Source of the DNA: a virus
Lineage: Duplodnaviria; Heunggongvirae; Uroviricota; Caudoviricetes
DNA: 22,556 bases
Reading direction: 5' to 3' (one strand)
IMG/VR virus record: IMGVR_UViG_2703718816_000011
Position numbers: made by a program. How positions within the stretch are numbered: the first letter of the stretch is position 1; each line of letters begins with the position of its first letter. Positions 6,001 through 9,000 of this stretch are shown piece by piece.

Positions 6001-9000
6001 ACGGAACTTGACATGTCGAGACGTGTTACCTCCCTCAGTAGCGCGTCTCTGTTCTTCGTCACCATGTAGATGGTCTCAAACGCAATGTCATACAGCTTGT
6101 TCGTGTATGAGGAGTTCAGCTCTTTCATTATGGGGTACAGCTGCTTGCTAAGGTCCTGGGCTTTTTCCATCCAGAGTTGCATGTAGCAAAGGAGGATGAT
6201 TTCCTCGGCTGTGAATTGTGGCTGAATCTGCGACTGCTGTTCGGTTTGTGTTGTTTTTCCCTGGCTGAAATAGCAGTCTTCCAGTTTTTCGAACACTTCC
6301 CACGCCCGATCGGTTTCGAGCATTTTTGCATGACGGGCTGCGCCGCGTTCTGTCCATAGGATGAGGGAGCGAACGTTACGGGCAATTTTCACAGAGTAGT
6401 TAAAAGCTACTCTGTGCTTGAACTCACGTAAAGTTTCACCTTCAAGTTTGAAGAAGTGTTTTTCCTCAATGAAACGACCTTTGTTTTCGTGGTGATTCTG
6501 GCGAATACGAATAGCTTCTGTGCCGTAAAGGTGCGCCAAAAGTTCGGTAGTGATAACGGGGATCTGCTTGTAAGTAATCGTGGAGAGTGTTTCAACAGAA
6601 ACTTGAGTTGTCATAATGACGCCCTCGAGTGGTTTCTAAACTATCACCACCGTCAGGTTCCTAATCATCGGGTGGCGAGACGTACAGGGTTAGGAACTAC
6701 CGGGAAACCAACCGGCGAGCTTTTCAGCTCCCCTATACGCCCCACCATAATTCAGATGTGCGTGTGCATACGACAATAAAAAACACGCTCGCGGCGTGTC
6801 TCTGTCGCGGTTTCTATCCGGGGTTCCTAATCCCGACGCCAGATTTTGCTGGCGTGCGAAGAATATAATCCCGGATATGTGTTGTCGTCAACATACCTTG
6901 AATGTATATAACAAATTTGTTATGTTTACTCTCATGAACTACATTATCGAATACTACAGTGACGAGGTTGAAGCTGAGATCCTTTCTCTTCCTGAGACCT
7001 TACAAGCCCGGTACATTCGGTACACGGAGAAAATGCGTATTTACGGAGCTAATCTTGGTTCCCCGCATACAGAGGCATTTGGCGACGGTTTGTTTGAAAT
7101 CCGCCTTAAGGGCTCGGAAGGCATAGGGCGTGTTTTTTACTGCACGCTAAAAGGAAAGCGAATCATTATGTTGCATAGCTTTGTAAAGAAAACGCAAAAA
7201 ACTCCACCTGCCGAGCTTAGAAAAGCTGAAACCAGAATGAAGGAGGTTAAGCATGACTGGTAAACGTACCCCACCTACCATGACACACGATGAAATGGTA
7301 GAAAAAATGTTGTCTAACCCCGCAGTAAAAGCAGAATACGACGCCATCGCCGATGAATTCGCACTACTTGATGAAATGCTGGCAGCACGAAAAGAAGCTG
7401 GCTTAACCCAGGCTGAAGTTGCTGAACGTATGGGAACAAAAGCGACTGCGATAACCAGAATGGAAAGCAATCTTGCATCAGGTACAAGCGGCCCATCATT
7501 TGCCACACTGAAAAAATTCGCCCGTGCTACAGGGAAAAAACTCCAGATCCGCTTCGTTTAACTCTCCACTACCGCGCCGTCATTCTGGCGGCGCTTTACC
7601 CCAGAGAAATATCAATCACCGGATTACCACATCCCACTCCGGCTCCTGCCATCTCAAATCCGGTGAATCATTTCTCTCAGGAATAACCATTACGTCCTTT
7701 TCCCTTCGCTCCCTTTCTATCGCCATCACAGCCAATGCTGCAACCATGATGTATTTTTGTTCGTCGGTTCCTGTTTCATAACGACGCATGAGGGTAAACT
7801 CGGGGCGATCAGTAACCTCAATGATTTCGTTAATTTCTTTAATTTCGCGAGGAATATCCATGGGTTTAGTCTCCTTTGATATCACATGCCCGCACTGTTT
7901 AAAAGAGCGAGCTGTTATTGAGGCATTTGCCGAAAAACAAATTGAAAAAACACCTTTTTTTAACGTCGCTTTTGTATGCAGAAGTTGTCATCGAGGAGGT
8001 GTTGCTATTGTTGAAATCCCATCAGACCACTATCACGGTCCCATGGCGGAAAGCCAGAAAAAAGACCTCGATATTCTGATTTCAGGAAATAGCCAGTACC
8101 GTTTCCGCAAGATCTATCCTGTGGTCAAAAAAATTACCGCACCAGAATATACGCCCCCGGTTGCAGACCGTACTTTTGTTGAGGCAAAAGAGGATTTACA
8201 GAGGAGGCGGTACGACACAGTGGTTATTCTTTGTCGCAGAGTCCTCGATATCTCCACGAAAAAACTGCTCGGCGATGAAGCAGGAAAAGAATCGCTGTCG
8301 CAACGTATTCAGATGATTTACAAAAAAGGCCTGATCACTGAACAGATGAAGGAATGGGCTCATATTGTACGAATTGATGCCAATAAAGCAGTTCATACAG
8401 ATGAAGTTTTCACACCAATTGAGGCAAGCCAGATCCTGAGTTTTACCGAAATGTTTTTAGTCTACGCCTTCACTCTGCCTGCAATGGTGGAAGCCAGACG
8501 TGAACAAAAAAGATCAGATTCAGCCTCTATATGAATCACTTTTCTGAACACGTAAGCCCCCGTCATTCACGACGGGGAGAACATCAATCCCTCTGCACTC
8601 CCTCGCCAGAATGCCAGCACACGCTGCATCGTTTCGCTGTTACGGCACTCGCGACAAATTGTGTTGTAGCGTCTGTCGTAGCGCCGTATTTCCCCATCTG
8701 GTAATGCCCGGATAAGGTCTGGATCAACGACAACCGGTTTCTTCAGCTTTGCCCTTGAGAGTTTTTTGCGGGCGTTTTGCCAGTCCTTGCGCGCCTGCTC
8801 AGACGGGAATACTCCGTAACCGGAATTGTAAACATCACCACTGGCGGCCAGCTCCATGCATAAACGACCGACAGACGCATGACTGACACCAATTTCATCC
8901 GATAACTGCCGAATCGTGCCTCGTCCGTTAAGGCGTACGAATTCCACGATCAGCCCCTTAATTTTTTCCCGCTCTTCTGGTGTAAATGCTCTTGTCATAA

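Follow-up and report, generated by a model that had tools for sequence, protein, structure and literature searches.

Our analysis supports a model whereby two small genes on the plus strand of the virus record IMGVR_UViG_2703718816_000011 (Caudoviricetes; the whole stretch of 22,556 nucleotides (nt) is called the window here) form a type II toxin–antitoxin operon that belongs, within the RelE/ParE superfamily, to the Gp49 branch and that resides in a lambdoid prophage of E. coli as a self-contained cassette. We regard this as the best explanation of the locus, and as a likely one. The Gp49 branch takes in gp49/gp48 of N15, Tad-Ata, HigBA of S. pneumoniae and the HigB1 TAC toxin of M. tuberculosis. 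In the mechanism that we propose by analogy, the toxin of 109 amino acids (aa) would bind the ribosomal A site and cleave mRNA, and the 102-aa antitoxin, which carries an XRE-type helix-turn-helix (HTH), would bind and neutralise it. Alone or in complex with the toxin, the antitoxin would repress the operon at a 16-bp palindrome that overlaps an extended -10 element. The 5' end of the operon mRNA would fall on or beside the toxin ATG at 6934, and this leaderless start would make translation of the toxin inefficient, while the downstream antitoxin would use a strong AGGAGG site, giving an excess of antitoxin despite the toxin-first gene order.

Gene model, family and predicted fold

The module comprises the following features.

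6934-7263, plus strand: toxin gene, 109 aa, Gp49-family RelE/HigB-type, Pfam PF05973
7253-7561, plus strand: antitoxin gene, 102 aa, XRE-type HTH at residues ~44-98 plus an N-terminal extension
7241-7246, plus strand: antitoxin Shine-Dalgarno AGGAGG, 6 nt before the antitoxin ATG, within the end of the toxin gene

The two genes are co-oriented with the toxin upstream, and in the list of open reading frames (ORFs) they overlap by 11 nt; this arrangement recurs in the distant loci checked. The toxin frame is open from 6796, contains in-frame ATGs at 6922 and 6934, and closes with the stop codon ending at 7263. Because distant homologues align from MNY as their first residues, with no equivalent of the upstream codon, the family-conserved start is probably ATG 6934 rather than ATG 6922. 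Most toxin homologues in the databases are 107-111 aa long and begin MNY, and the PGAP annotation of E. coli G1/2 also starts the gene at ATG 6934. An earlier note, made from the DNA alone, had opened the module at 6922, which places the start 12 nt upstream of that of the most likely coding sequence. Its central claim, that a Gp49/RelE-like toxin is followed by an overlapping XRE-HTH antitoxin, is backed by evidence from profiles, structure prediction and annotation.

Searches with profile hidden Markov models place both proteins above the respective Pfam cutoffs. The toxin matches Gp49 (PF05973) with 94.2 bits (cutoff 23.9; E 5.2e-27) over profile positions 2-90 of 90, and the antitoxin matches HTH_3 with 43.4 bits (cutoff 23; E 3.6e-11). 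Among the PHROGs, the toxin falls into phrog_2523 (unknown function; E 3e-42) and the antitoxin into phrog_1373 (transcriptional regulator; E 3e-36). The classical HigB families of Pfam (PF05015, HigB-like; PF09907, HigB) gave no match to the toxin at E <= 0.01. Because Gp49 is the only toxin family found at this threshold, we file the module under the Gp49 branch and not under classical HigB; judged from these profiles, the name HigB is apt only in a loose, Gp49-branch sense. In a 2025 survey, the Gp49 family, with about 22,000 Pfam entries, is described as degrading mRNA in a ribosome-dependent manner and as having the toxin/antitoxin gene order (PMC11980606). The window toxin has thousands of homologues with 50-75% identity in Proteobacteria, Acidobacteriota, Planctomycetota and others, and a homologue is present in only 37 of 50,697 phage records. 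The toxin shares 42.9% identity with N15 gp49 by tblastn (residues 15-105).

The AlphaFold2 model of the toxin, built from a 36-sequence alignment (pLDDT 86.7), contains the elements E-H-H-E-E-E-E-H and is predicted to adopt a RelE-type fold, in which helices flank an antiparallel sheet, and to have the long C-terminal helix that marks Gp49-like toxins. Its top matches in the PDB by Foldseek are S. pneumoniae HigB (6AF3/6AF4) and M. tuberculosis HigB1 (7NBU/7AWK), with TM 0.75, and the next are archaeal RelE, YafQ and V. cholerae HigB2. The model is a poor match to ParE structures (TM <= 0.38), and we rejected a ParE-like gyrase poison as an identity for the toxin. Residues E55, R57, R66, F83, K85, Q88 and K89 align to E66, R68, R77, F93, K95, Q98 and K99 of HigB-TAC, pocket residues that were defined in HigB1 by mutagenesis and cryo-EM. 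Within the 36-sequence alignment, five of these seven positions do not vary, K89 is conserved to at least 90%, and Q88 agrees with the consensus. For the antitoxin, a profile of 35 cognate sequences searched against solved structures returned S. pneumoniae HigA first (6af3_B; E 6e-10), M. tuberculosis HigA2 second (7ewc; E 2e-8) and HigA3 fifth (6lty; E 6e-6); these HigA structures are partners of Gp49-branch toxins.

The identity of the module as a toxin–antitoxin pair is already known, as it is labelled in RefSeq and GenBank. Over 1.1 kb, the region has 99.9% identity with prophage sequence of E. coli G1/2, G6/7 and G8, where PGAP names the products 'type II toxin-antitoxin system RelE/ParE family toxin' and 'helix-turn-helix domain-containing protein', and the corresponding region of Escherichia phage PhiR5_2, 96.8% identical, is labelled 'toxin HigB' and 'antitoxin HigA' in GenBank. 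Recognition of the module as such thus adds little: the family is large, phage-borne examples are familiar from N15 onwards, and annotation pipelines give the sequence this label. The corrected gene model and the promoter described below matter for cloning of the module.

Predicted promoter, operator and leaderless toxin

Two overlapping elements precede the toxin gene.

6898-6926, plus strand: predicted toxin–antitoxin promoter, -35 TTGAAT at 6898-6903, 17-nt spacer, extended -10 TGtTATGTT at 6918-6926
6908-6923, no strand assigned: predicted operator, perfect 16-bp palindrome ATAACAAATTTGTTAT, covering the promoter spacer and the first -10 bases

The arrangement TTGAAT-17-TGtTATGTT-7 nt-ATG 6934 is kept in every E. 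coli and Shigella relative, with identical geometry in the window and the related loci L003, L004 and L088. The palindrome ATAACAAATTTGTTAT is the sole perfect palindrome of at least 16 bp in the 22.5-kb window, with 0.34 expected from shuffles. The same layout recurs in distant relatives. We examined 63 distant loci from one-genome-per-species contigs, with 540 ORFs of the same loci as controls. A TAnnnT hexamer 6-8 nt ahead of the start was present for the toxin in 46 loci and for 25 of the controls (4.6%), a distance statistic that depends on toxin starts taken from tblastn alignments. A palindrome with arms of at least 5 bp is found at -40 to -5 in 45 of the 63 loci versus 69 of the 540 controls (12.8%), and it takes the form TAACA-N4-TGTTA or TAGCA-N4-TGCTA at the same place as in the window. 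The consensus of the distant loci reads ttg-(17)-aTAaCAAATaTGcTAttAT-6/7 nt-ATG. Moreover, the half-site of the operator (TAAC..GTTA versus TAGC..GCTA) tracks the antitoxin residues that follow a conserved GT in the HTH and open a predicted helix of it ([QK][AP]P versus T[VQ]S). This co-variation fits the palindrome being the predicted operator of the antitoxin, and shared ancestry could give the same pattern.

With 6-7 nt between the end of the -10 element and the start codon, we predict a leaderless toxin cistron whose 5' end coincides with ATG 6934 or adjoins it. The window toxin gene lacks a Shine-Dalgarno motif, and its ATG lies 7 nt past the -10. Across the family, motifs resembling a Shine-Dalgarno sequence precede 3 of 66 toxin starts versus 56 of 65 antitoxin starts. 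A precedent for such a start is ssl7039, which encodes a Gp49-domain toxin in Synechocystis and has a mapped transcription start that coincides with its start codon; all leaderless toxin–antitoxin loci of that study have the reverse gene order, according to its authors (PMC4963859). We rejected an internal promoter for the antitoxin, as the scan's sole plus-strand promoter-like site (7280-7308) falls 3' of the antitoxin start. No internal antitoxin promoter was found in A. baumannii HigBA2 either, where HigA2 represses its own promoter with the toxin as corepressor, and whose authors note that the way in which toxin-first systems regulate their ratio is not known (PMC5906591).

The promoter had previously been placed at TTGTCG-17-TATATA. 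Both strings are present in the window with this spacing (6882-6887 and 6905-6910), but the conserved promoter is instead TTGAAT-17-TGtTATGTT. If TTGTCG and TATATA were the elements in use, transcription would start near 6917 and translation at ATG 6922, yielding a 113-aa toxin. Besides the two hexamers at a 17-nt spacing, the persistence of ATG 6922 in E. coli and Shigella relatives speaks for this, the more so as it is the sole in-frame ATG before the gene body in a lineage with ATA in place of ATG 6934 (see below); in a cassette encoding ParD that occupies the same position elsewhere, TTGTCG fits, as read from the sequence, an extended -10 (TGcTATCAT) 16 nt downstream. However, the TATATA hexamer lacks the conserved final T of a -10, the consensus scan did not call the site, and the spacing of the hexamers grows to 19, 20 and 24 nt in the related cassettes of L088, L004 and POCJ13, respectively. 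ATG 6922 has, in addition, no counterpart in the distant homologues, and the homologue lengths given above match the shorter product. We consider this arrangement improbable and keep it only as a minor rival of the TTGAAT promoter.

With the TTGAAT promoter, an extended -10 fused to an operator would fire directly onto the toxin start codon. Our literature search did not find a family-wide description of a leaderless toxin design, and this control design, together with the cassette-exchange hotspot described below, may be undescribed, a possibility that we place slightly short of an even chance. The combination of a leaderless toxin with an antitoxin behind a strong Shine-Dalgarno sequence offers a testable explanation of ratio control in toxin-first systems. 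If true, it would be a general answer to how such systems obtain an excess of antitoxin, and toxin output would depend on conditions that favour leaderless translation.

The cassette, its slot and its neighbours

The module is delimited by two short elements.

6874-6892, no strand assigned: left cassette junction GATATGTGTTGTCGTCAAC, which holds the near-palindrome TGTTGTCGTCAACA (6880-6893)
7574-7594, plus strand: GC-rich hairpin CGCGCCGTCATTCTGGCGGCGC, 9-bp stem followed by UUU, right cassette end, weak terminator candidate

BLAST breakpoints between the window and five related loci support that the module is a self-contained, swappable cassette with conserved ends at about 6874-7594. Homology with POCJ13 begins at 6874, and the left flank is unrelated; E. 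coli FDAARGOS_943 shares the module up to 7594, has an unrelated right flank and carries the module at a different position in its prophage; and homology with L004 likewise ends at 7594. In E. coli L005, both flanks are shared (up to 6893 and from 7568) and the cargo is different. The junction GATATGTGTTGTCGTCAAC is kept in all eight compared loci, irrespective of the cassette or left flank, with one base differing in L086. It also contains TTGTCG (6882-6887) and, on the minus strand, TTGACG (6891-6886), which is the -35 of the divergent promoter of isrK. In seven of the eight loci, and with each of the three cassette types, the hairpin CGCGCCGTCATTCTGGCGGCGC comes directly after the final cassette gene, with one base differing in L088. 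It folds with -16.5 kcal/mol (z = -4.2) on the plus strand and is not significant on the minus strand. The downstream hairpin of the earlier note is real, and the layout of an independent moron that had been claimed is supported by the sharp mosaic breakpoints at 6874 and 7594 and by an upstream junction and a hairpin that travel with the cassette. Candidate elements for its own expression are the conserved promoter-like element and the hairpin, which is stable and has a short U tract.

The slot holds other cargo elsewhere.

L086, 1766-2414: other cargo, in the slot equivalent to window 6893-7573

In L087 (2559-3720; a Stx2a phage) and in E. coli L005 (3245-4223), the slot encodes a ParD antitoxin, a 90-93-aa protein and an HTH protein of the 'HigA family'. 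The 90-93-aa protein has no match in Pfam and is possibly an unrecognised toxin; the ParD and HigA genes were termed 'orphan antitoxins' of unclear role in a 2025 paper (PMC12502783). In phiSTEC1589-Stx1c, the cargo is a TumE toxin and an HVO_A0114 winged-helix protein, and many other records of Stx-converting phages match the flanks only. The paaR2-paaA2-parE2 module of the O157 prophage CP-933P was considered as a further occupant and rejected, as it sits in the immunity region. Two loci suggest that cassettes replaced one another stepwise: in L088 (2563-3514) the Gp49 pair is followed by an extra HigA-family gene as in the ParD cassette, and in L005 a remnant of the module's antitoxin gene, from its 3' end (window 7493-7563; 71 bp, 95.8% identical), persists at 3831-3901, upstream of the HigA-family gene. 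We suggest that toxin–antitoxin or defence modules may be exchanged in lambdoid and Stx prophages at this slot, with the 19-bp junction on one side and the 21-nt hairpin on the other. A variable slot with fixed ends in Stx-type prophages would be a reasonable place in which to seek prophage-encoded functions of defence or stabilisation in pathogenic E. coli.

Within the prophage, the minus-strand neighbourhood reads cro, cII, O-like, DnaC-like, DUF1627, DUF977, module, antirepressor, ninB, ninE, rusA and ninH. In agreement with the earlier note, the module lies at the junction of the replication and nin regions, between the replication genes and ninB, and runs counter to the early operon on the minus strand. 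The idea that it takes the place of lambda ren is not supported: the module adjoins a DUF977 gene (window 8567-9004) that the RefSeq record of POCJ13 labels 'Ren-like exclusion protein', and because of this label a ren-like gene may coexist with the module. At least 80% of the 1.1-kb region is held by only 23 of 5426 complete E. coli genomes, and at least 80% of the whole window was found in no complete E. coli genome; the window prophage is a mosaic that is absent as such from this collection.

To the left of the junction lie genes of a different kind.

6891-6862, minus strand: isrK promoter TTGACG-18-TATATT, from the consensus scan, 10/12 sigma-70 matches
6778-6855, minus strand: gene for the Hfq-binding small RNA IsrK, Rfam RF01394, 69.2 bits (gathering 50), full length
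6668-6752, minus strand: C4-type antisense RNA, RF01695, 66 bits, full length; fold -43.8 kcal/mol, z = -5; directly downstream of IsrK
5943-6614, minus strand: antirepressor gene, ORF6N/P22AR_C
5042-5686, minus strand: antirepressor gene, Bro-N/P22AR_C

The isrK promoter ends 6 nt before the 5' end of IsrK, and the 3' end of the RNA folds into a terminator stem followed by U6. The isrK and toxin–antitoxin promoters stand back-to-back, with their -35 hexamers 6 bp apart. We found no support for control of isrK by the antitoxin through TGTTGTCGTCAACA: compared with the operator, this near-palindrome has its half-sites in opposite arrangement, and the unrelated ParD and TumE cassettes lie beside the same junction. 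The order of IsrK, C4-type RNA and antirepressor mirrors isrK-orf45-anrP of Gifsy-1, where IsrK turns on translation of the antirepressor and causes growth arrest (PMC4825925), and it also resembles the c4-ant unit of P1. An 11-nt inverted repeat, TATCCGGGGTT / AATCCCGGATA (6815-6825 / 6867-6877), brackets the 5' half of IsrK and the -10 region and ends at the cassette junction. Two more Rfam matches above gathering are sRNA-Xcc1 (68.6 bits; 5729-5819, minus strand), between the two antirepressor genes, and STnc100 (142 bits; 1065-1276, minus strand), near the left end of the window.

To the right, beyond the hairpin, a second gene runs against the early operon.

7860-8534, plus strand: neighbour gene, 225 aa; Cys4 zinc ribbon CPHC (10)/CRSC (40), DUF4145, R171-x7-H179

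Its product matches DUF4145 of Pfam (E 4.9e-9), and its match to the PD-T7-4 model of PADLOC is weak (15 bits; E 0.0026). This architecture resembles RAZR/PD-T7-4, which, given the weak match, makes the gene a candidate member only; RAZR is a recently characterised abortive-infection ribonuclease (RNase) (PMC13017515). The gene lies next to the slot in five of the related loci whose annotation covers that side. A small minus-strand gene at 7616-7861, which matches no family, shares 2 nt at its start with the start of the RAZR-like gene; a 30-nt inverted repeat (7596-7625 / 7657-7686; 77% complementary, 31 nt apart) lies within or just past the 3' end of this small gene.

Possible roles and known systems

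Several points weigh against a Gp49-type toxin–antitoxin operon with a leaderless toxin as we have laid it out. Toxicity, RNase activity, neutralisation, transcription start and operator binding of the module are all things that we infer. The match of the toxin to the NCBIfam equivalog TIGR02683 (RelE/ParE toxin, upstrm_HI1419) is sub-threshold, with 21.8 bits versus a cutoff of 62.85. The M. tuberculosis toxins HigB2 and HigB3, also of the Gp49 family, were non-toxic when tried (PMC9098466). Ribosome dependence is not certain, because the Gp49 toxin Ssl7039 of Synechocystis cleaved RNA in vitro without ribosomes (PMC4963859). In the control region, the predicted promoter reaches only 8/12 over the core hexamers, the consensus scan did not call it, several distant loci have a GTG toxin start, and the distance statistic is bound to the tblastn-derived starts. 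Gene 49 of N15 has an ordinary AGGAGG leader, which rules out a leaderless design for the whole Gp49 family, and because of this leader we restrict the design to the present subfamily. Finally, only three U residues follow the stem of the hairpin, which is at best a weak terminator.

The properties of HigB2 and HigB3 would also suit a toxin that is weak or inactive, in which case the pair would mainly be a small transcription-factor locus, a decaying toxin–antitoxin system. Consistent with decay, a lineage that is 96.7% identical, represented by PhiR5_2 (L002) and E. coli DETEC-S792 (L090), has ATA in place of the conserved toxin start ATG (window 6934-6936), and annotators, PGAP among them, call only a 76-aa C-terminal fragment of the toxin there. 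In the window copy, however, ATG 6934, the 109-aa frame and all of the mapped catalytic residues are intact, and the 50-75% identity of the toxin across phyla indicates purifying selection on the protein; we regard decay as improbable for the window module. In the other lineage, the change from ATG to ATA may be a natural attenuation of the toxin, as its sequence suggests, including in the inducible phage PhiR5_2. ATA stands at the conserved start in about half of the close E. coli copies, and a loss this frequent argues against strong selection for an active toxin.

If the operon does encode an active toxin, it could be an addiction or stabilisation element or a selfish cassette, whereby the longer-lived toxin would arrest cells that have lost the prophage. 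The 42.9% identity to N15 gp49 points in this direction, as the N15 pair is cited as a stabilising system (Dziewit 2007, as quoted in PMC5906591), and both N15 gp49/gp48 and Tad-Ata have been shown to act so on plasmids. Similarly, HigBA2 of A. baumannii, also Gp49, stabilises an unstable plasmid (PMC5906591), and the movement of the cassette between unrelated flanks is like that of selfish modules. But segregational loss of an integrated lambdoid prophage is rare, making the benefit unclear, and neither the frequent loss of the start codon in close copies nor the presence of the full module in only 23 of 5426 complete genomes is what addiction would favour. We take a stabilising role to be possible, if doubtful.

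The neighbourhood of the module makes it tempting to speculate about a second role. In this scenario, the main selected function would be anti-phage abortive infection: infection by another phage, or the shut-off of host transcription that results, would deplete the labile antitoxin, and the freed RNase would stop translation before the cycle of the invader is complete. The adjoining plus-strand gene, with its RAZR/PD-T7-4-like zinc ribbon and a DUF4145 HEPN-like domain bearing R-x7-H, would fit such a role, as would a slot that carries interchangeable cassettes of the toxin–antitoxin type, like defence hotspots; in addition, the C-terminal half of the toxin matches NsnC of PADLOC (E 5e-8). 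On the other hand, no model in PADLOC-DB v2 covers the pair as a system, and the antitoxin gives generic HTH matches; no defence phenotype of Gp49-type pairs turned up in literature searches that were not aimed at such phenotypes; and the RAZR-like match is weak (15 bits), its co-location being circumstantial. We consider abortive infection somewhat unlikely as the main selected role. Altogether, the RAZR-like neighbour and the variable slot lean to defence, and the precedents of N15 and A. baumannii lean to stabilisation.

Several known systems are close to the module. Gp49/gp48 of N15 and Tad-Ata of the Paracoccus plasmid pAMI2 are the founding members of Gp49 (PF05973), the Pfam family of the window toxin. 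Similarly to the window module, the N15 pair is borne by a temperate phage and has the toxin gene first and the HTH antitoxin gene directly after it. However, N15 is a linear plasmid prophage in which segregational stabilisation makes sense, whereas the window module lies in an integrated lambdoid prophage, and the leader of N15 gene 49 has no equivalent in the toxin genes of the window subfamily. HigBA of S. pneumoniae (6AF3/6AF4) is the best match in sequence and fold for both partners (toxin profile E 2e-7; TM 0.75), and its HigB shares with the model of the window toxin the long C-terminal helix of Gp49-like toxins; it differs in its identity of ~20%, its Gram-positive host and its chromosomal locus. 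M. tuberculosis HigB1 (the TAC toxin, Rv1955; 7AWK, 7NBU) has the same fold (TM 0.75), and all seven pocket residues are identical in the window toxin. The ribosome-bound structure of HigB1 TAC displays cleavage of mRNA in the A site, the mechanism that we propose for the window toxin. TAC differs in being tripartite and in needing a SecB-like chaperone, for which the window module has no gene, and the identity is ~18-19%.

Two plasmid-borne systems resemble the proposed control of the module. A. baumannii HigBA2 (plasmid pAB120) has a Gp49-domain toxin encoded first, and its antitoxin represses the promoter with the toxin as corepressor (PMC5906591). Synechocystis ssl7039/ssl7038 has, like the window module, a Gp49-domain toxin and the reverse gene order, and it has a leaderless mRNA, as predicted for the window module (PMC4963859); it differs in being cyanobacterial and plasmid-borne and in its reported independence of ribosomes in vitro. 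Finally, classical HigB/HigA systems (Rts1; HigB of E. coli and V. cholerae; PF05015, PF09907) share with the module the toxin-first order, the XRE-HTH antitoxin and the RelE fold, and are set apart from it by the Pfam families of their toxins, neither of which matches the window toxin.

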